From contig JAGVXK010000002.1 in NCBI GenBank assembly GCA_018303825.1, forward strand, positions 1 to 37,172: a DNA stretch of 37,172 bases, given 5' to 3'. Position 1 is the first letter of the stretch, and every line of letters starts with the position of its first letter. This DNA comes from Candidatus Pacearchaeota archaeon (lineage in GTDB: Archaea; Nanobdellota; Nanobdellia; Pacearchaeales; GW2011-AR1). The position numbers were made by a program, and so were the translations under genes. Shown piece by piece: positions 10,503-19,274 of this stretch. The notes under the pieces were generated by a model, which was given only the letters and a program-made list of their open reading frames with translations, was not told the origin of the DNA and ran no database searches.

Positions 10503-10889
10503 ATGGGGAAAGTAATAAGAGGAGCTCTTTTTGGCGCAGTTCTTGGGGGTTTTTTTGCACTTGTGACTTTGCCGTGGAGTAAAAGTTATCAAACTCAAAA
10601 TTTAGAAAGAGAAATAGTAGCTTATAAATTAGGGAATTATGAAAATGCTGATAGATACAATGAGCTACAGGCTGAATTAATGGAAAGCAAACGAACAAGT
10701 GCTATTAGTTATTGTTTGGTGATGGGTAGTCTTGGCGCATTGGTTGGGGCAGGAGTAAGTTATAAGACTAAAAAGAAATCTATTTGTTTAAACTGTTCAG
10801 CAGCATCTTGTGTTTCCAGGGAAGCTTTCCATGCACAAAATAAAAAAACTCTTGAAAATAAAATTCGCGGTTTAACTTTCGGAAAATAA
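10503..10889 (+). CDS. Small membrane protein
   Basis: Two hydrophobic segments; TATA-like aacttaaata upstream. Confidence 0.55.
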   Translation: MGKVIRGALFGAVLGGFFALVTLPWSKSYQTQNLEREIVAYKLGNYENADRYNELQAELMESKRTSAISYCLVMGSLGALVGAGVSYKTKKKSICLNCSAASCVSREAFHAQNKKTLENKIRGLTFGK

Positions 10890-10984
10890 TAGCTTTAGTA
10901 GTAAATGAGGCGCGTTAGCGCCGATTGCGCCCGACATCATTATCTTATACACTGACATTTGTGAGGTTTTATTGGCTAAATGTT

Positions 10985-11004
10985 CGCTTAAGATTGATTA
11001 AACG
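10985..11004 (-). repeat. Core site S1: cgcttaa-gattga-ttaaacg (spacer inverted relative to other cores)
   Basis: 7-bp inverted arms, 6-bp spacer whose reverse complement starts TC like the other cores. Confidence 0.7.
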
Positions 11005-11067
11005 TAGCCAGAAATCTGTCCTGCGGATTTTATTTTCAATAAAACTCTCAATCTGCTTCCTCAGCTC

Positions 11068-11127
11068 CGCTTAAACCTTTTTCCAAACAACAGACGCGCT
11101 TTGCGCCTAATCTAGTTTAAACGAAAT
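11068..11127. repeat. Fold-back unit B1 (third arm 11068; core cgcctaa-tctagt-ttaaacg 11104-11123)
   Basis: Part of 135-bp repeat 10996-11130 matching 14439-14573 with 4 mismatches. Confidence 0.9.
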
Positions 11128-11250
11128 TGCCCTTTTCAAAATAGTGCGTCAGATACCAAAGGGGGTCGGCTCGAGGTCGCTTTCAGCGACAGATAGTTCT
11201 TCGCTGAGGCGAAGAGAAATAATCAAGATAATCGGAATTAGAAACAATAA

Positions 11251-11736
11251 TCATTTATATTTTTCAGAAACATTTTCTAAAGTGGAATCCAAGTTATTTC
11301 TCAATTTTTCAGATTCTAGCCTTAAAATTTCTTTTTTTGGCAAAAAGACTTTTCCAACATTATTTGTCCCATATTCATATAGGGGTCTTTCGCTGTCTTT
11401 TGACTGCAAGACAATACTTTCAACATTATTTGTTCCAGCAGAAGGCATTATAGCACTTCTAACTTCGTTAGTATTTCTTCCTAAGTAATTTCCACCAAAA
11501 ACTAAAGCAGAAGATAATATTCCATATGTTAACATTCTTTTAGCAAACCTACTAGGTTCTTTAATTAATTCAGCACAACCACCACCACCAATAACACCAC
11601 CAACAACACCACCAACAACGATATATGGAATAAATTCAGGATTATAACAACTTAATGCAGTTAATCCCGCGCCCGCTAGAATTCCAGATGCTGTAGCAAT
11701 TCTACTTTCTAATTTTAATCTTTGCTCATTTTCCAT
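11251..11736 (-). CDS. Membrane-anchored hypothetical protein (cargo)
   Basis: 161 aa, Gly-rich hydrophobic N-terminal half; own promoter at about 11758-11772. Confidence 0.6.
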   Translation of the reverse strand: MENEQRLKLESRIATASGILAGAGLTALSCYNPEFIPYIVVGGVVGGVIGGGGCAELIKEPSRFAKRMLTYGILSSALVFGGNYLGRNTNEVRSAIMPSAGTNNVESIVLQSKDSERPLYEYGTNNVGKVFLPKKEILRLESEKLRNNLDSTLENVSEKYK

Positions 11737-11926
11737 AGTTTTTAATTAAAAAAGGAGTATATAAAACTTTCTATTGTTACTACTAACTAAAGACACTGTA
11801 AACTTCTCGCCGACCCCCATAAACAATAGTACGCAGATACAAAGAGCAATTACGCTTCGGAAGCATCTTTTCAAGCAGATTTTGGTCCACGAGGCTTTTT
11901 ATGCGCACCCGTGCCTCTAAAGAGGA

Positions 11927-12065
11927 CGCTTAATCTCTGCTAAAAGGCACATTCCTTGATTTATCCTAAATCACTTTTCTCGTAAAAGACGGAATATGAC
12001 CTAACTTTCAATAATTCTAAGTTAAAAATAGCTTTGAAAGTTCTTTTAGCCTGAACGATTAACCG
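11927..12065. repeat. Fold-back unit AC2 (cgcttaa-tctctg-ctaaaag ... cttttag-cctgaacga-ttaaccg)
   Basis: 11929-12010 is 81/82 identical to 14308-14389; 12034-12062 is identical to 14416-14444. Confidence 0.9.
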
Positions 12066-12129
12066 CAGTTTATCTGTGCGGAGTTTTTGCAAAAATCAGG
12101 AAAAATTCTCAAGCCCAATTCCCTCGTTC

Positions 12130-12187
12130 CGCTTAAGCAATTTCAGAAACAAAACGCTATTCGCGTCTAATCGCGCTTAAGCGAAAT
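12130..12187. repeat. Fold-back unit B2 (core cgtctaa-tcgcgc-ttaagcg 12164-12183)
   Basis: Perfect cgcttaagc/gcttaagcg terminal stem; homologous to B1, B3, B4. Confidence 0.8.
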
Positions 12188-12233
12188 TTCTAACAAATTC
12201 AAAGATATCGGAAGTTGTTCACCCACCCAATAG

Positions 12234-12247
12234 GAAAGGTTTTTAAA
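12234..12247 (+). promoter_or_regulatory. Archaeal BRE-TATA promoter
   Basis: gaaaggtttttaaa about 30 bp upstream of ATG 12277. Confidence 0.6.
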
Positions 12248-12276
12248 GAACTTCCCCCTCGAGGAAATAACTTAAG

Positions 12277-13092
12277 ATGGGAAAGAAAATAATTCTACCG
12301 ATTGCTTTCGCTTTAATTCTTTTGGGCGCTGTTTTTGTTTCGGCATTGAATCTGCAAGATTTTACTAATTTACAACTCGGCAACAATCAGGGTATTGTGG
12401 AAAGTCCGAATGGACACGTTACTATTAATGTAGTAAAGGGATGGAATGTTCTACCTCTTAAGTTTATTTCTGAGGCATCGGGGAGATATTGGGGCAACTA
12501 TAAAGAAGGACAAACATGCAGTCAAGATGTTTTTCAGAATGTTTGGTATTATTCTCCTGAAAGGGCAAGTTATTATCACATCCCAGTAATAGATGATTGG
12601 AGTGCTCCTAAAACTAGAGATAACGCCTTTCTTTTGGGCGAACTTCAAGGGAAGTATTATCATGTCTTTGCAGGAAGCGCTTGGATGTATTCGCCGAAGA
12701 ATTGTACATTAGAAGGCGACAATGGTGTTGATTTAGTCTCTCGCAGTTATGGAAGCGAAGATCAAGATATATCTTATTCGTATGGCGATCTAATTTTGAA
12801 GGCTGGATGGAATTTTGTTCCAGTCGATTATCTTTGGTCGGCTATGGATAAGTCTTTTGCAGAAGTGTTCGCTGGGTGTAATGTAGAAAAGTTTAATATT
12901 TGGGATAGTCAAAAACAAAAATGGTTATTTTCTATATCTCAAAACGTGACGAGTGCTTCTTTTGCTTGGAATGAAGAAATAGCACCTCCTATGATTTTTA
13001 CAACGTTAGTCGTTAAAACTGGAAATGATTGTGCTCTGGCTAAAAATGTTATTGATGGTCAGACAGACTCAAACCCTCCAGCATTACCGTAA
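12277..13092 (+). CDS. Secreted/surface protein with two GWN motifs, ends in PPALP
   Basis: Signal peptide; VKGWNVLP and LKAGWNFVP; 4 Cys. Confidence 0.7.
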   Translation: MGKKIILPIAFALILLGAVFVSALNLQDFTNLQLGNNQGIVESPNGHVTINVVKGWNVLPLKFISEASGRYWGNYKEGQTCSQDVFQNVWYYSPERASYYHIPVIDDWSAPKTRDNAFLLGELQGKYYHVFAGSAWMYSPKNCTLEGDNGVDLVSRSYGSEDQDISYSYGDLILKAGWNFVPVDYLWSAMDKSFAEVFAGCNVEKFNIWDSQKQKWLFSISQNVTSASFAWNEEIAPPMIFTTLVVKTGNDCALAKNVIDGQTDSNPPALP

Positions 13093-13093
13093 A

Positions 13094-13264
13094 ATGGAAG
13101 AACAGACAACAGAAAAAAAAAGTAAGGCATGGATTTGGATTTTAATAATTATAATCTTAATAGCAATCGGAGTTGGAGTCTACTTCTGGCTAACAAGCGG
13201 AAGCGGGGGAAGTTCTATAATTGGGGGAAGTTCAATACCTCAACCACCAGCCCTACCAAACTGA
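13094..13264 (+). CDS. Small single-TM protein ending IPQPPALPN
   Basis: Start re-called at ATG 13094, 1 bp after upstream stop; 56 aa. Confidence 0.7.
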   Translation: MEEQTTEKKSKAWIWILIIIILIAIGVGVYFWLTSGSGGSSIIGGSSIPQPPALPN

Positions 13265-13388
13265 AAAACCTTTCTGATTAAAGTTCCCACCCACAACTTC
13301 CTCAAATAGTTAGAAATTACACTCGGGAAGGCTTTTCGAACACAGATAAACACTCGAGGATTTTCGTAATCAGCTCGAGCCAAAGGCA

Positions 13389-13531
13389 CGGTTAATCTCA
13401 CATAAGAGATAAATTCCTTAATTATTCCATAATTGTTTTTCTTCGTGAAAAAACGGAATTTAGTCTTAGTTTTAGCTTATATGATTTAGATATTAATGGC
13501 TAAAACCACTTTTATTACGAACGATTAAATG
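13389..13531. repeat. Fold-back unit AC3 (diverged copy)
   Basis: Same stems as AC2/AC4 with compensatory changes, conserved TCC loop and acgaacgattaa end. Confidence 0.75.
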
Positions 13532-13616
13532 AACTTGAAATTTGCTTCTTAATATTATAAACTAAATAGGAAGTTATTTTCAGAATGAAAATAATTCTCA
13601 ATCTCTCTTCTCGTTA

Positions 13617-13672
13617 CGCTTAAGCCTTTTTCAAAATCAGACACAAACCGTTTAATCTCGCTTAAACGTAAT
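13617..13672. repeat. Fold-back unit B3 (core cgtttaa-tctcgc-ttaaacg 13649-13668)
   Basis: tacgcttaagc/gcttaaacgta terminal stem. Confidence 0.8.
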
Positions 13673-13810
13673 TGACGGGAATACTAAACAAATTTATGAT
13701 TTGCATTCCCCCGACCACCCGCCCCTAAATAGTCGCCTTCGGCGATTATACAAAATAATTATCAGAAAACAAACGGGAAGGTGCGCCAAACAAAGTAACT
13801 AAGAAAATAA

Positions 13811-14104
13811 TTAGGGGTGCGGAACTGATGATATTGATTCAGTTTCAAATCTCTTTTTGAATTCTGGATTGGTCACAAGAAGTTTTTCCATCTCAGACCT
13901 TTCCCTAGTCCTTCTCTCATTAATTTTATCGTTAATTATTCTACCCCCAGCATAAAGTGCAATTCCAATCCAAGATTCTGATTTGTCAAGAGCAAGGACT
14001 CCAATTCCACCAACCTCTAAAGCATAACAAGTTATTTTTACAAAACCTAAGTCACGAAATGTTCTTCTGTGAAAGCTGTAGTCATCATATAGTTCATCTG
14101 CCAT
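13811..14104 (-). CDS. Small membrane protein (cargo)
   Basis: 97 aa, two hydrophobic segments; promoter agaaagctttaaata upstream. Confidence 0.6.
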   Translation of the reverse strand: MADELYDDYSFHRRTFRDLGFVKITCYALEVGGIGVLALDKSESWIGIALYAGGRIINDKINERRTRERSEMEKLLVTNPEFKKRFETESISSVPHP

Positions 14105-14305
14105 GAAATTTTATGAAAAAACTAATATTTAAAGCTTTCTATTTGTTACTATTATCAAGTTAAATCAGAAACAAAATGCACCTTCCCACCACCGCAAATC
14201 ATAAATCCAAACTCAAAATAGCCGTCAATTCCACTCGAAGAGAGATTCACGAACAAATATTCAAGACACGAGGGGCTTTAGTATCCCACTCGTGCCCATT
14301 CGGGT

Positions 14306-14447
14306 CACTTAATCTCTGCTAAAAGGCATATTCCTTGATTTATCCTAAATCACTTTTCTCGTAAAAGACGGAATATGACCTAACTTTCACCTTATACTAA
14401 CAATTCAATAACGGGTTGAAAGTTCTTTTAGCCTGAACGATTAAACG
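14306..14447. repeat. Fold-back unit AC4
   Basis: Near-identical to AC2; shares 21 bp and 31 bp exact blocks with AC5. Confidence 0.9.
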
Positions 14448-14510
14448 TAGCCAGAAATCTGTCCTCCGGATTTTATTTGAAATAAAACTTTCAATCTGCT
14501 TCCTCAGCTC

Positions 14511-14570
14511 CGCTTAAACCTTTTTCCAAACAACAGACGCGCTTTGCGCCTAATCTAGTTTAAACGAAAT
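14511..14570. repeat. Fold-back unit B4 (core 14547-14566)
   Basis: Identical to B1. Confidence 0.9.
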
Positions 14571-14682
14571 TGCTGATTGTGGGCATTTCAGTCAGACAGA
14601 GACACGTCGGGGGCTTGGGTGCTATCGCACAGAGAGCTTCGGCTCACGCCGAAGGAAATACCATTATCTCTTTGCGATTAAA

Positions 14683-15648
14683 TCACTGAGTTGGAATAGT
14701 TTCTATTTTGTGATATTTTGAAAAAGTAATGATCTCTATTTTCTTAAAAATAGGGAATTTAGTCTTAAGACTTTTAACAAATTCTACTAATTTTTGTTTA
14801 TTTTCTACCTCCAAATCTAATTCAAAATCCCAATCAGATATGGTATAATCTATAAAGATAACATTGCGATTTTGCTTACAATATGCCTCAAGCTCTTTGA
14901 TCTGATTAGTATTACTTAATTTAATGTTCAGTTTAAAATATTGATAACTGATTTTATTTAAGTTTATATTTACCCTATACCCTAAGATAATTCTCTTCTT
15001 TTCTAGTTGTTTAATCTTGTGTATTACTGTTCTGGGGGGAATTTGAGTTTTCGCAGATATTTCTAGAGCAGACATCCGACTATTTTTAACGAGAAAGGAA
15101 AGGATTTTTTTATCTCCCTCGTCTATCTTGATTTGATTGGATTGCCCAACAGATTCGGCACCCTTTCTGGGAATATCTGATAAATAATTTCTTTTGAAAT
15201 GGTCAACCCTTGAAATAATGCTTATCTGCTCATTTTCAATAAACTTCCGATATTTAGATTTGAATTGATTCCAGAAATGATAAAATTCTTGAATATTTTT
15301 AACGGTAGCCATAAACATCGCGTCATAATTTGCTTCGAGTTCAGCTACAATAGTACATATATTTTCTTTTATTAATTCATTTAGGATCTTCTCTTCTTCT
15401 AATGGATCGGTATTAATAAAATTAAAATAAACTCGAAATGCGATGTATCCTAATTTAGATACATCGATTGAAGGGTAAAATCCAAGAATAACTTTCTCCT
15501 CAATCAATCGTTTTAATCTAAATTGGAGAGTGTTTTGGTTAATTCTTAATCTTCTTGCTATTCTTGATATTGGCTGCCTAGAATTCTCGTCTAGCTCGGC
15601 TATGAGCCTCAAGTCTGTTTTGTCAGGGAGAGTGTATTCTTTAATCAT
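14683..15648 (-). CDS. Tandem-duplicated Lrp/AsnC-family transcriptional regulator
   Basis: Two HTH-RAM repeats (DKTDLRLIAELDENSRQP; DEGDKKILSFLVKNSRMS). Confidence 0.88.
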   Translation of the reverse strand: MIKEYTLPDKTDLRLIAELDENSRQPISRIARRLRINQNTLQFRLKRLIEEKVILGFYPSIDVSKLGYIAFRVYFNFINTDPLEEEKILNELIKENICTIVAELEANYDAMFMATVKNIQEFYHFWNQFKSKYRKFIENEQISIISRVDHFKRNYLSDIPRKGAESVGQSNQIKIDEGDKKILSFLVKNSRMSALEISAKTQIPPRTVIHKIKQLEKKRIILGYRVNINLNKISYQYFKLNIKLSNTNQIKELEAYCKQNRNVIFIDYTISDWDFELDLEVENKQKLVEFVKSLKTKFPIFKKIEIITFSKYHKIETIPTQ

Positions 15649-15739
15649 GTTGTTATAATGGCATTAGTATATATAAATATTGCTTTTTTAACAATAAATA
15701 GACAATAAAGTAAATATACTTTACAAATATGCATATCTT

Positions 15740-16648
15740 ATGTTATCGAGAGAATTGCCTCTTTTAGAGAGGCATATAAACTTTGAGAATGAGCAACTGC
15801 ATGTGCTTACGGCTCTTTATGGAGCAGTCGTGGGTGCGGTTAGCGAAGCAGACATAGAGTTATGCAAAAGCATTGAACTAATGAAATCTTCAACTCTAAT
15901 TTTAGACGATTTCCTAGATGAATCTCCAAAAAGAAACGGTATTGCTTCTATATATGCCGAGCAAGGGGCAAAGACAGCAGTTCTTACTGCTGAGCTTCTG
16001 AAGGGGGTGGCTTCTTCTAAACTAATAGAAATATTAAGGACTGATGCTCGTAATTATGATAAGCTTGCATTTTTGCATGTTTTTGAGGATACTTATGCAA
16101 CTATCTGCAGGGGACAGATGAGAGACATTTCGTTAGCAAAAATACCAATCTTAGAATATGTTCCTTCTGAGAAAGATTATTTTGATCTTATTGGAGACAC
16201 TTCTGCATGCTATATCCGAGCACCACTGCTGATGGGGGGAATAGTTATGAACTTACCTAAAGATGTGCTTACATCTCTTGGCGACTTTGGAATAAATATA
16301 GGACTTGCTTATCAGATAAGAGATGATGTGTTAGATCTTGTTGGAGATCCAGAGAATATGGGCAAACCCTTTGCTGGCGATATCAGAGAAAAGAAAAAGA
16401 GGTTGCCGCTCATACATCATCTTTCTGTTGAACCAAGGGGGCTTGTAAGAAAGATTATGACTAAACCTTGCTTAAATGACGAAGATGTTATAAAAGTAGT
16501 TGAAGAGCTAAGGCGCACAAGATCTTTGCAGTATTGTGTGGATAAGATCTTTTATTTCAAAGAAGAGGCAATGGATTCTTTATCATATAAAAATAATGAA
16601 TTGGCAGCAATAGCAGAATTAATCACTAATTTTCAAGGAGGTATATAA
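15740..16648 (+). CDS. Polyprenyl-diphosphate-synthase-fold protein (atypical)
   Basis: DDFLD and YQIRDDVLD Asp-rich motifs, GQMRD, MGKPFAGDIREKK; GKxxR motif absent. Confidence 0.8.
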   Translation: MLSRELPLLERHINFENEQLHVLTALYGAVVGAVSEADIELCKSIELMKSSTLILDDFLDESPKRNGIASIYAEQGAKTAVLTAELLKGVASSKLIEILRTDARNYDKLAFLHVFEDTYATICRGQMRDISLAKIPILEYVPSEKDYFDLIGDTSACYIRAPLLMGGIVMNLPKDVLTSLGDFGINIGLAYQIRDDVLDLVGDPENMGKPFAGDIREKKKRLPLIHHLSVEPRGLVRKIMTKPCLNDEDVIKVVEELRRTRSLQYCVDKIFYFKEEAMDSLSYKNNELAAIAELITNFQGGI

Positions 16649-16649
16649 A

Positions 16650-16838
16650 ATGGGAGAACTAATCCTATCCTATATAGGCAAGGAAAGAGTTCAGCTGCCA
16701 GATAGCTTGCAACCTTTGCAACCTTATTTATCTGCATGCTTTCAAGCAGATGAGGTAAGAAGATTGTTTGATGGGGCAGGCGATCTTCAGAGAATCTTGA
16801 ACTCTTATAAACCTGTAGAATCTAGAGGATCTAAATAG
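16650..16838 (+). CDS. 62-aa hypothetical peptide coupled to the prenyltransferase-like gene
   Basis: 1-bp gap; GGAGG Shine-Dalgarno upstream. Confidence 0.55.
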   Translation: MGELILSYIGKERVQLPDSLQPLQPYLSACFQADEVRRLFDGAGDLQRILNSYKPVESRGSK

Positions 16839-16849
16839 AAGGCAAGAAG

Positions 16850-16984
16850 ATGAATCAATTCACCATAACAAAGAAAATAGCAAAGCATGGAAAACAAGCA
16901 ATAATTGTAGTTCCAAAGCTATTAGAGGAACAGCTTAAACCAGGCACAATAGTTGAACTGAAAATAGAGATAATTAATCAATAA
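16850..16984 (+). CDS. 44-aa AbrB-like (DUF2080-like) protein, not in ORF track
   Basis: MNQFTITKKIAKHGKQAIIVVPKLLEEQLKPGTIVELKIEIINQ. Confidence 0.65.
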   Translation: MNQFTITKKIAKHGKQAIIVVPKLLEEQLKPGTIVELKIEIINQ

Positions 16985-17040
16985 CAGAGTGGGAAATTGA
17001 CTTCCAGAAAGCTTAAAAACTTCGCTTATTTGGAATATTT

Positions 17041-17175
17041 ATGGAAATGGTAAAGATACCAAAGGACGAATATGAGAAGCTGAAAATGCAAGCAAATGTA
17101 GACATGGATTTATTAAAACAATTAGTTAGAAGTGTGAAAGACATCAAAGAAGGTAGAGTAATTAGGGTTAAATAA
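17041..17175 (+). CDS. 44-aa putative antitoxin, not in ORF track
   Basis: MEMVKIPKDEYEKLK...SVKDIKEGRVIRVK, resembles small archaeal RelB-type partners; gaaagcttaaaa promoter upstream. Confidence 0.6.
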   Translation: MEMVKIPKDEYEKLKMQANVDMDLLKQLVRSVKDIKEGRVIRVK

Positions 17176-17179
17176 AAGA

Positions 17180-17521
17180 CTACGATTCTTCATCTTGTGA
17201 TTTGTTTTCTCTGACCAATTTTTCTATTTCATCTCTAAAAAATTCTAAGAAAAGTCTAATTGCGTTGATTGTTTTTTGCTGATCTTTTTTGCCACTTATC
17301 GCAACAAGATAAACTGCCTGCAAATCTTCATAGACTAAGTAATAAATTCTGTAATTTTCAAATCTTGATTCTCTGAACCATTTAGTTCCAAGAGGATTTC
17401 CATATTCAGGATTGTCTACTAATTTATCTTCTATTTTGTCAACCCTATCCTGAATTGATTTGTCATATTTAGCTATCTCCTCTTGAAAACCGACAGAACG
17501 AAACACCTTATACTTTTTCAT
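17180..17521 (-). CDS. RelE/ParE-superfamily toxin
   Basis: Start re-called at ATG 17521; NPEYGNPLG, FRESRFENYRIYYLVY, KKDQQKTIN. Confidence 0.72.
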   Translation of the reverse strand: MKKYKVFRSVGFQEEIAKYDKSIQDRVDKIEDKLVDNPEYGNPLGTKWFRESRFENYRIYYLVYEDLQAVYLVAISGKKDQQKTINAIRLFLEFFRDEIEKLVRENKSQDEES

Positions 17522-17818
17522 GTGAATTATAGGAAACACCAGATTAAAAATCTTCTTTTTCAGAAAAAGAAGCAAAAACGCGCCCCCGACAGATACAAAT
17601 GAAATGCCCCAGAGACATAAGATTCTCAGCAATTACGCAAAGAGCCCATTCTCGTGAGGTTTAGCTTACTCGAGACTCTTAGTTCGTAGCTCGAGGTCTT
17701 TCAGACTCGCCTAATCTCTGCTAAAAGGTAAATCTCTCAATTACTCCGTAATTGTTCTCTTAGTTCGAAACGAGATTTAATCTAACTTTCACCTTATACT
17801 AATTAGCTTTAGAAAAAT

Positions 17819-18022
17819 TTAATTTGCCACAAGTGACTTAAGTGCAGAGGATGGCAAATGCTCGCTTGCATCAAGTATCTCAATGCCCAAAACTTTTCCA
17901 CTTTTGTCCAAATCTACGTTAACAGAATCATTTAGAGAGATTGTCTCCGCTACTTCTCCATTTCCTATTTCTTTGAAATAGACATAGGCTGCATCAGCTT
18001 CTTTATCAAATTCAGTTCTCAT
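17819..18022 (-). CDS. DUF2283 family putative antitoxin
   Basis: FDKEADAAYVYF...VDLDKSGKVLGIEILDAS. Confidence 0.88.
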   Translation of the reverse strand: MRTEFDKEADAAYVYFKEIGNGEVAETISLNDSVNVDLDKSGKVLGIEILDASEHLPSSALKSLVAN

Positions 18023-18024
18023 CT

Positions 18025-18231
18025 TTACATGACACTGACCACCTTTATATATTTATCTTTACCAGCGTAGACAACTTTTACCCTCTTTTCAGGATACTTC
18101 TTAATTGCTTCTGTTTTCTTGCCTTTTTGGACAGTATAATCAGGCATTTCGATAGTTTCTTGAACCTGCTTGAAAGTTATTGCCCTTTCAGCCATTCTCT
18201 TTTTTGCGTGGTCTGTTAGTATGATAGTCAC
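18025..18231 (-). CDS. DUF4258 family putative toxin (BrnT/RelE-like fold)
   Basis: LTDHAKKRMAERAIT; canonical pairing with DUF2283; non-ATG start. Confidence 0.8.
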   Translation of the reverse strand: MTIILTDHAKKRMAERAITFKQVQETIEMPDYTVQKGKKTEAIKKYPEKRVKVVYAGKDKYIKVVSVM

Positions 18232-18351
18232 TTGCTTAATAGTTTTGTTTAGATTATAAATTTTTCTTCGCTTTCGTTTTACGATTGGGTTGAAAGTTCT
18301 TTTAGCCTGAACGATTAGACGAAAAGTAAACCTCTTTAGGGATTTGATAAA

Positions 18352-19274
18352 TTATAAATGCAATATCTTTTCAGCATCGATTACCATAGAAAGTGCTGTT
18401 GGACCTGGACCAGCTCCAGGACCAATTAAGACATAACTACCATCTTTCCCAAACTCTCCCTCTGAAGTTAGAACTGCATTATTTACTCCGCTCGGAACCA
18501 ATTCTCTGAATAGAGGATTACCCTCTATGTTTCTTCTCTTGTAATTGAAACAATATATCTCCTGTTTGAAGCTTCTCGAACTAACCTTCTCAATTGATTC
18601 AATTCAATTGGCTCGACAATAATATCTTTAGCCCTTATTCTTTCTCGAGTTAGATTACAGACATTGAACAAAATAGAAGTTTTCATCGGAACATCGCCGG
18701 TTGCTTCTTTGTTTATAACCTCTAAGGGATGTTTCGCACCAGGTTCTGCATAACCAAGCCTCTTTGTTTCTTCGACCACCTCGCCGAGGCTTCTTCCTCT
18801 AGATAATCCCTCAAAAATGTAGTTTAATGTGCCATTGATGACCGCATGAATTTCTTGAACTTGTGGTCCAATTCTTTCTTGTAAATATCTTAATAATCTT
18901 GAACCACCACCAACAGTGGCACTATATCCTATCCTGTGACTTCTTACGGCTTCCTCAAGCTGTGAAAAGTAATTAGATAATGCCCCTTTCTCGCATGTTA
19001 TAATCGGAACACCCGCTTCTAAGGTTGAAGTTATGTATCTAAGCGCAATTTCTCCAGTATCTAAGGTAGGTATAGCAAGAAAAACCGCATCCAGCCCTCT
19101 GACATGCAATGCGTAATCCTCTATCTCTGCTAATTTTGTCTCGCCAGATAAATCTTGGAAGATTCCTTTTGAACCAGCAACCCACTCTACACCCCACCCT
19201 CTAGACTTAGCCTTGTGATAAACCTCTGAACCAATCGTCCTCTTACCTACTATTCCTACATTAACTTTTGCCAT
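18352..19274 (-). pseudogene. hom: Homoserine dehydrogenase, frameshifted
   Basis: 19274-18525 has TCEKGAL, SATVGGG, NGTLNY, LGYAEP; after TAG at 18525 a second frame continues SGVNNAV...GPGAGPGPTA to TAA at 18352. Confidence 0.75.

Follow-up and report, generated by a model that had tools for sequence, protein, structure and literature searches.

A folded unit in integron-like cassette arrays of DPANN archaea, probably an attC-type recombination site

The stretch of DNA analyzed here (referred to as the window; positions 1 to 37,172 of contig JAGVXK010000002.1, assembly GCA_018303825.1, Candidatus Pacearchaeota archaeon; 37,172 nucleotides) carries an array of small genes separated by related intergenic modules, at the center of which lies a folded element, the AC unit. 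This unit is probably, though far from certainly, the conserved folded core of a separator of ~450 nucleotides (nt) in an integron-like cassette array of DPANN (Pacearchaeota-type) archaea, and most likely functions in recombination as a structure-specific, attC-type site. The fold, its covariation, its restriction to Watson-Crick pairs, the array context, the linkage to a recombinase gene in relatives, and a core shared with a site located next to that gene were directly observed.

A covarying fold at the center of inter-cassette modules

The source assembly (806 kb, 85.7% complete) is that of a small archaeon, and the window is chromosomal DNA containing, among others, genes for a family-B polymerase, FEN1, HerA, and Lrp. 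Between 10.9 and 18.3 kb, the genes are short and most of them have no Pfam family or are toxin-antitoxin-like; small genes of this type between the units speak for a cassette array. The cassette genes are separated from each other by five homologous mosaic intergenic modules, each ~360–580 nt in length, and the AC unit is the central 135–147 nt of each ~450-nt module. Four copies are present on the + strand of the window, three intact and one split. A second array, on contig C22 of the same genome, contains three further copies. The orientation of the unit relative to neighboring genes varies.

The intact copies have a common fold, which comprises a basal helix (P1), an asymmetric internal loop, a second helix (P1b), and a junction with a P2 domain, consisting of two small hairpins, and with a hairpin designated P3. 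In copy c1 (11930–12062, +; 165.6 bits with a covariance model built from the four copies), P1 is formed by TAATC+TC and GA-(AC bulge)-GATTA, P1b by CTAAAAG and CTTTTAG, P2 by ATTCC and GGAAT, which enclose the hairpins TGATTTA-TCC-TAAATCA and CTTTT-ctcgt-AAAAG, and P3 by AACTTTCA and TGAAAGTT, with a loop of 24 nt. The TCC triloop that caps one of the P2 hairpins (P2a) is invariant. Copy c2 (13382–13528, +; 135.7 bits), the most diverged in the window, displays compensatory changes in P1b, P2a, P2b, and P3. Copy c3 (14309–14445, +; 157.4 bits) is 97% identical to c1 outside the P3 loop and both flanks. Copy c4 is split into a 5' part (17711–17802, +; 60.4 bits) containing P1, P1b, the P2 domain, the 5' strand of P3, and the shared loop start ccttatactaa, and a 3' part (18288–18318, +) containing the 3' strands of P3 (TGAAAGTT), P1b (CTTTTAG), and P1 (GATTAG).

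A first-pass annotation of this DNA had proposed a multi-stem fold of ~140 nt with compensatory changes in four copies. Every arm pair that it quoted was located in the sequence: the outer pairs ttaatc/gattaa of c1 (11930–35 and 12057–62) and ctaatc/gattag of c4 (17711–16 and 18313–18), attcc/ggaat versus aaatctc/gagattt, aactttca/tgaaagtt versus gttttagc/gctaaaac, and the TCC-capped arms tgattta-TCC-taaatca, aattat-TCC-ataatt, and caattac-TCC-gtaattg, the latter at 17738–54. All four copies exist, but the fourth (17711–18318) lies outside the span to which the proposal referred and is split by ~485 nt in the loop of the aactttca/tgaaagtt hairpin. The quoted helices stand, and one additional helix (gctaaaag/cttttagc), corresponding to P1b, had been missed. 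The asymmetry of the spacers was likewise borne out, since each copy has an asymmetric internal loop between P1 and P1b, but the fold gives spacers of 2–3 versus 5–7 nt instead of 6 versus 9 nt. The longer spacer (5–7 nt) holds 2 base pairs and a 2-nt bulge.

Minimum free energy folding of the three intact copies led to a single architecture, with z-scores of −3.3, −2.4, and −5.3 in comparison to dinucleotide shuffles. RNAalifold identified 46 pairs in the four copies, including 17 pairs with compensatory changes. In an alignment of 31 distinct homologues, 91.9% of the cells were paired versus 38–49% for slid partners, changes had occurred on both sides in 39 of the 46 pairs, and none of 500 shuffles reached any of the covariation measures. 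A second covariance model was built for a more distant form of the AC unit (42 copies), for which the corresponding values were 88.4% and 34–49%. Thus, the fold is real and not due to chance, since pairing and double changes are far above those observed with the slid and shuffled controls. Covariation spans all seven helices without sequence conservation. Homologues possess the P2 domain in full, in reduced form, or not at all, and their P3 loop is 23–29 nt long or, if it contains cargo, 440–670 nt long.

Searches based on the covariance model detected the AC unit in 19 of the 151 genera sampled in the family; the 24 genomes from sister families contained none. The exact 26-nt motif at the 3' end of the unit was found in 30 metagenome contigs, mostly from groundwater. 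The copies exclusively form ordered, co-oriented arrays, and none was dispersed.

Pairing type and nature of the folded strand

Structured RNAs normally contain several per cent of G·U pairs and far fewer A·C mismatches, the former being much better tolerated. In clean copies of the AC unit, pairing is almost purely of the Watson-Crick type, with 18 G·U versus 33 A·C among 1057 pair cells. The inner helices contain 11 G·U versus 23 A·C among 966 cells, and the distant form 13 versus 21 among 1223. G·U accounts for ~1% of the pairs and is no commoner than A·C, whichever strand is read. The covariance models of Rfam did not produce any match in the window at the gathering score and, at E ≤ 1, no match to the AC unit was obtained in the interval 10800–18500, the only two hits in this interval being at chance level and outside the unit. 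A scan for tRNA and tmRNA genes detected nothing. Covariation in seven helices without sequence conservation also implies that binding sites in duplex DNA cannot account for the pattern. Folding of single-stranded DNA therefore appears to be the simplest reading, based on the restriction to Watson-Crick pairs, the lack of an Rfam match, and a covariation that exceeds what duplex sites could explain.

Alternatively, the AC unit could be a structured RNA, either a cis element of the cassette transcripts involved in processing, stability, or termination, or a small non-coding RNA produced from each module, in which case the link to a recombinase described below would reflect regulation or guidance. 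Many RNAs likewise combine several helices with a three-way junction, a conserved triloop, and long-range pairing, the only insertions accepted are those in loops, which is also true of introns and rRNA, and the cargo of P3 is always antisense, so that cargo transcripts would cross the complement of the 5' half of the unit. We nevertheless regard this explanation as unlikely in view of the scarcity of G·U pairs on either strand reading (18 versus 33 A·C, and 13 versus 21 in the distant form) and of the lack of an Rfam match even at E ≤ 1. In addition, inspection of the modules by eye did not reveal an archaeal promoter (B recognition element [BRE] and TATA box) consistently located upstream of the unit, the orientation of the unit to neighboring genes is not fixed, and neither the invariant AAC/GTT core nor the TGTT shared with a site beside the recombinase gene (see below) has an obvious rationale at the RNA level. 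Self-splicing introns and other large RNAs with open reading frames in peripheral loops resemble the AC unit in that genes are found only in the hairpin loops of a conserved fold. In contrast to self-splicing introns, the AC unit has no G·U enrichment, Rfam match, or catalytic-core motif, and forms tandem arrays linked to a recombinase. A riboswitch or leader was ruled out, as the AC unit has no fixed orientation or distance to neighboring genes.

Linkage to a XerA-family recombinase and an attC-like core

In two relatives, a weak match to the AC unit was present at 325–815 nt from a divergently oriented tyrosine recombinase gene. Using this recombinase as the query, we retrieved 34 DPANN loci, in which the model of the distant form detected 32 AC units distributed in 16 loci. 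Relative to the recombinase gene, all 32 units were upstream and 31 occupied the other strand; the DNA searched around these genes amounted to ~169 kb downstream versus ~86 kb upstream. The linked enzyme is XerA-like and consists of ~280 amino acids, and array-linked enzymes were above the cut-off only for the XerA family NF040815. Genomes harbor two to four XerA-like genes, and AC units were found only beside the lower-scoring paralogues, none being located by high-scoring XerA copies. In a phylogenetic tree, 16 of the 18 AC-adjacent enzymes belonged to a single clade (support 98/94). At eight loci (L089, L095, L098, L101, L103, L108, L113, and L115), the contigs of metagenome-assembled genomes (MAGs) stop upstream of the recombinase gene linked to the array, at a distance of less than 200 nt. 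Such ends would be expected if repeats broke assemblies at this position, and they suggest that array DNA is systematically lost from assemblies.

Of 27 loci, at least 18, or about 22 if imperfect repeats are included, have an inverted repeat 47–103 nt upstream of the recombinase gene, with [ATG]TGTT following it within 0–4 nt. The TGTT is common to this site and to the invariant 3' basal strand of the AC unit. Moreover, in loci L094, L106, and L037, the sequence that follows the TGTT on the side of the repeat is the same as the sequence that follows an AC unit. The shared TGTT and the shared following sequence therefore place the junction between site-specific and cassette sequences at TGTT. 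In integrons, GTT is the junction of site and cassette sequence for both attI and attC. Cargo-free tandem cassettes with a period of 213 nt were observed beside the recombinase gene of a MAG titled 'Parvarchaeum' (L094:5457–5775 and L094:1834–2196).

The R boxes of attC sites are defined as 7-nt inverted sequences, RYYYAAC and GTTRRRY (PMC2727003). The 42 distant homologues fit this pattern at the majority level. Their basal helix reaches an AACA/TGTT core in 39 of 42 copies, in which the core is invariant (37–39 of 39), and the consensus reads R(83%)Y(59%)Y(61%)Y(73%)AAC ... GTT R(82%)R(61%)R(51%)Y(88%), with GCCTAAC-type sequences in several loci. The copies of the window contain GCTTAAT...ATTAAAC and GCCTAAT...ATTAGAC, i.e. 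RYYYAAT/ATTRRRY, which is not the attC R-box consensus and is one compensatory pair away from it. At the aligned positions, the subgroup of the window has TAATC/GATTA, with two compensatory pair changes (AAC/GTT to AAT/ATT). The compensatory change of C-G to T-A beside the predicted cleavage point would be a natural specificity variant.

The attP site of the CTX phage and the attC site of integrons recombine as folded single-stranded DNA, which rebuilds a recombinase site with a mismatched overlap region. The first-pass annotation had extended this to the AC unit, which it considered to be a single-strand recombination substrate. This view is partly supported. As a recombination site, the unit gains from the divergent XerA-linked arrays, the R-box-like basal helix, and the TGTT core shared in relatives, and loses from the lack of a recombinase in the window, the position of the genome's own XerA-like genes outside the array-linked clade, and arms that do not mimic the dif-like inverted repeat. 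For the single strand, the support is indirect and consists of covariation in seven helices without sequence conservation and of pairing confined to the Watson-Crick type, with no excess of G·U. In the mechanism that we propose, one free DNA strand would fold and the basal helix P1 would provide one recombinase arm, RYYYAAT/ATTRRRY in the window and RYYYAAC/GTTRRRY in relatives. It would be followed by the asymmetric internal loop with its fixed 2-nt bulge and then by P1b, acting as the other arm. The three-way P2 domain and P3 would constitute a variable terminal structure, in which the P3 loop can accommodate entire genes. The 3' strand of P1 would then be cut (A|TT in the window, G|TT in relatives) by a tyrosine recombinase of the XerA family devoid of the IntI-specific domain, and the cut strand would be exchanged with another AC unit or with the inverted-repeat-plus-TGTT site beside the recombinase gene. 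The folding of DNA rather than RNA, the choice of the strand, the cleavage point, and the enzyme serving the two recombinase-less arrays of this genome are what we infer in this scheme.

The dif site has an 11+6+11 design and XerA was reported to bind weakly to unrelated stem-loops (PMC8371274). In about 10 loci, the inverted repeat that adjoins the recombinase gene consists of arms of 9–13 nt and a spacer of 6 nt. Because of this dif-like geometry, the arrays might also be piles of small integrative elements exploiting XerA/dif, comparable to the integrative mobile elements exploiting Xer (IMEX) of Vibrio. The inverted repeat would then be dif and the AC unit a folded attP integrated as single-stranded DNA in the manner of the CTX phage. 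The assignment of the recombinase to archaeal XerA, the growth of arrays from the inverted-repeat site, and the reported affinity for stem-loops are in favor of this scenario, which we find quite unlikely on the following grounds. The AC unit is not a dif mimic, since its arms (TTAAGAGG, AACAGC) are kept across loci in which the arms of the inverted repeat are wholly different. The inverted repeat is intact and the TGTT core lies outside it, not at the edges of the spacer. Only one clade of the two to four XerA-like genes per genome is linked to arrays. Finally, the cargo consists of single small genes and not of phage genomes.

Comparison with these systems nonetheless identifies common features. 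The AC arrays share with CTX attP(+) and IMEX, which depend on XerCD/dif, a Xer-family enzyme, a proposed folded single-stranded substrate, and the build-up of tandem copies next to an inverted repeat that resembles dif. They differ by the single-gene cargo and by the linkage to a dedicated clade of paralogues rather than to the housekeeping enzyme. Resolution of chromosome dimers by archaeal XerA/dif (PMC8371274) involves the same enzyme family (NF040815), and an inverted repeat of the 11+6+11 type is present by the gene in several relatives; XerA/dif is, however, a single site without a cassette array, whereas dozens of structured sites follow the repeat in the loci described here.

Cargo, mosaic modules, and comparison with integrons

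At least 10 AC copies hold 440–670 nt in the P3 loop. In c4, the cargo (17803–18287, −) is antisense to the AC unit and comprises genes for DUF2283 (17819–18022) and DUF4258 (18025–18231) proteins, a pair that forms a putative toxin-antitoxin module (17819–18231, −) with its own TATA box adjoining the 3' strand of P3. The same arrangement, an antisense cargo with a BRE/TATA motif beside the 3' strand of P3, was found at all readable 3' junctions (at least nine distinct). In another genus (L039/L057), c4 in its entirety, cargo included, is conserved at 81% over a length of 615 nt. One of the copies of the C22 array is split by an open reading frame of 182 codons in the P3 loop, as in c4.

Genes are also enclosed by long-range helices that we refer to as clamps. 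The arms GGGAAGGTGCG (13775) and CGCACCTTCCC (14178) delimit a clamp (13775–14188) around the cassette gene 13811–14104, and further clamps are present at 11161/11809, 12210/13293, and 14606/17582. The 11-nt arms of the first clamp and their flanks are identical on C18 (window 13775–14188) and at C22:25441–25908, and the enclosed genes are wholly unrelated, the swap of cargo having occurred exactly at the inner ends of the stems. An 'empty' clamp, GGGAAT-22 nt-ATTCCC, followed by the C-rich box CCCCCGACCACCCGCCCCTAAATAG, was observed at 13676–13740; almost every letter of the box is conserved in other genera (L017, L018, L023, and L096).

Several observations weigh against the identification of the AC unit as an attC-type site. 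Since cargo turns over exactly inside the clamp stems and the P3 loop, it is not explained by one crossover at P1. The body of the AC unit assorts without regard to its flanks on either side, and the hairpins of the module are swapped as individual blocks. Mosaicism does not, for this reason, single out the 3' edge of the unit, and mosaic breakpoints, considered as a marker of crossover at this edge, were not decisive, the left flank being equally independent. A recombinase gene is found neither in the window nor on contig C22. The two XerA-like genes of the genome (contigs C4 and C5) are outside the array-linked clade, neither covariance model detected an AC unit beside them, and the assembly is only 85.7% complete. 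The array-linked enzymes lack the IntI-specific domain, the match to the integron-integrase model TIGR02249 being split into two pieces, below the cut-off, with profile positions 185–236 absent. The arms of the unit do not imitate the neighboring inverted repeat, which weighs against a simple analogy with attC or CTX attP. In attC, two or three extrahelical bases are located on the R''-L'' arm (PMC2727003). The sole conserved extra bases of the AC unit are those of the 2-nt bulge (AC in the window, GA in relatives), which is on the L'-R' arm. There is also no known reason for the conservation of the TCC triloop of P2a. Near-identical metagenome contigs differing by the presence or absence of a cassette were sought, but the best matches were only 80–88% identical, so that no exact excision junction could be read.

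The exchange of module hairpins as blocks suggests frequent homologous exchange and is compatible with a selfish or structural repeat, similar to miniature inverted-repeat transposable elements, repetitive extragenic palindromes (REP), or insulators. Such a repeat would be spread by a hairpin-specific enzyme, for example a Y1 transposase of the IS200 or REP-associated tyrosine transposase type, or by homologous recombination, and would have no role as a site for a tyrosine recombinase. A Y1 transposase gene is present in this genome (C17:12284–12649), and Y1 genes were found in 10 of 19 AC-positive versus 37 of 132 AC-negative genomes. However, the genome that contains the most AC copies (G069; eight copies, 91% complete) has no Y1 match, the unit occurs only in ordered co-oriented arrays and not at dispersed positions, and in 16 loci it has a fixed position and a fixed strand with respect to the recombinase gene. 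We consider this explanation to be very unlikely and the co-occurrence with Y1 transposases to be a weak link. No TnpB was found near the arrays, apart from a 16.7-bit match, nor was a serine recombinase or resolvase. A reverse transcriptase gene was also lacking near the arrays; this gene is located on another contig (C20:55852–56473, with an in-frame TGA).

The attC-type reading is best appreciated by comparison with integrons. Like the large branched attC sites of integrons, such as the Vibrio cholerae repeats, and of clusters of attC sites lacking an integrase (CALINs), the AC unit is present once per cassette in co-oriented arrays. It combines two short helices with an unpaired asymmetric spacer, fits the R-box pattern at the majority level in relatives, and has a variable, sometimes branched terminal structure, structure being kept and sequence being free. 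As in integrons, the arrays of 16 related loci diverge from a tyrosine recombinase gene, the neighboring site shares the GTT core, and the cargo includes toxin-antitoxin modules. The array of the window has no neighboring recombinase and is in this respect CALIN-like. The C22 array also has no recombinase nearby, and both arrays are co-oriented. Unlike attC, the AC unit of the window reads AAT/ATT and not AAC/GTT, and its 2-nt bulge is on the arm opposite to that of the extrahelical bases. It is only the core of a ~450-nt module with additional covarying hairpins and long-range clamps across cargo, and one of its hairpin loops can contain genes with their own promoters. Another difference from integrons concerns the linked enzyme, which is XerA-like, ~280 amino acids long, and devoid of the IntI domain.

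Six genomes of Pacearchaeales and six of Woesearchaeales have been reported to contain clusters of attC sites without an integrase (PMC9668308, supplement), which speaks for the attC-type reading, and canonical integrons with attC and IntI have been described in Archaea (PMC9668308). The integrase-less clusters may be the same elements as the AC arrays and may have a recombinase after all. We found no description in the literature of XerA-linked cassette arrays in DPANN archaea, which does not prove that none exists, nor of a large branched site whose loops contain genes, nor of an AAT/ATT variant. The present analysis adds the statistics of recombinase linkage and the clade of the linked enzymes, the attC-type core, the TGTT junction common to both sites, a test based on wobble pairs, and the observation that one and the same clamp can enclose different cargo.

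Integron integrases are thought to derive from Xer recombinases by acquisition of a domain that reads the extrahelical bases of the folded attC. To our knowledge, no natural intermediate between Xer and integrases has been described. There is a substantial chance that the AC arrays represent a distinct Xer-based gene-capture system. More tentatively, DPANN archaea might possess a second kind of integron, based on a XerA paralogue without the IntI domain and on large folded attC-like sites, in which cassette genes inside the P3 and clamp loops would occupy landing pads for cargo swap. This possibility, which we hold to be doubtful, would correspond either to an ancestor-like state of integrons or to a system of structure-guided, single-strand gene capture that arose independently. 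A widespread array system in archaea would make the transition from Xer to integrase testable, provided that its sites retain the R-box pattern and the two-helix geometry, that the bulge is located elsewhere, and that a plain XerA-type enzyme is linked to them. Such a system would, in addition, explain the flexible pool of accessory and toxin-antitoxin genes in genome-reduced, host-dependent DPANN archaea.

The remainder of the module is also structured. Two covarying hairpins, H1 (CACGAGG..CCCGTG) and H2 (CCTCT/AGAGG), are located at 11888–11925 (+) and, within the same ~450-nt module, upstream of every AC copy. The downstream part, at 12063–12190 (+), contains the hairpin H3 and a box, CGCTTAAGC...TAATC...GCTTAAGCG, and is repeated after each AC copy and also at 10996–11130. 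The left end of the array, ATGTTCGCTTAAGATT|GATTAA (10980–11001, +), is the point at which similarity between modules begins, at the GATTAA of the 3' strand of P1, and the array ends ~22 nt beyond the 3' part of c4 (18318). Both arrays of the genome (in the window and at C22 ~33090–33070, −) begin exactly at GATTAA, in line with the attC-type reading; the motif formed with the preceding ATGTTCGYTTAAG-nnn may be the remnant of an entry site. These ATGTTCGYTTAAG-nnn-GATTAA starts (10980–11001; C22 ~33090–33070) adjoin unrelated housekeeping-type genes. The last gene of the large cassette encodes a ParE-like toxin (17180–17632, −); ~240 nt adjoining this gene are 80% shared with the C22 array, and the remaining cargo differs. 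Finally, a run of GGT/GTT codons (11560–11620, −), forming a 12-nt periodic repeat, specifies a glycine/valine-rich stretch in the cassette protein encoded at 11251–11736.

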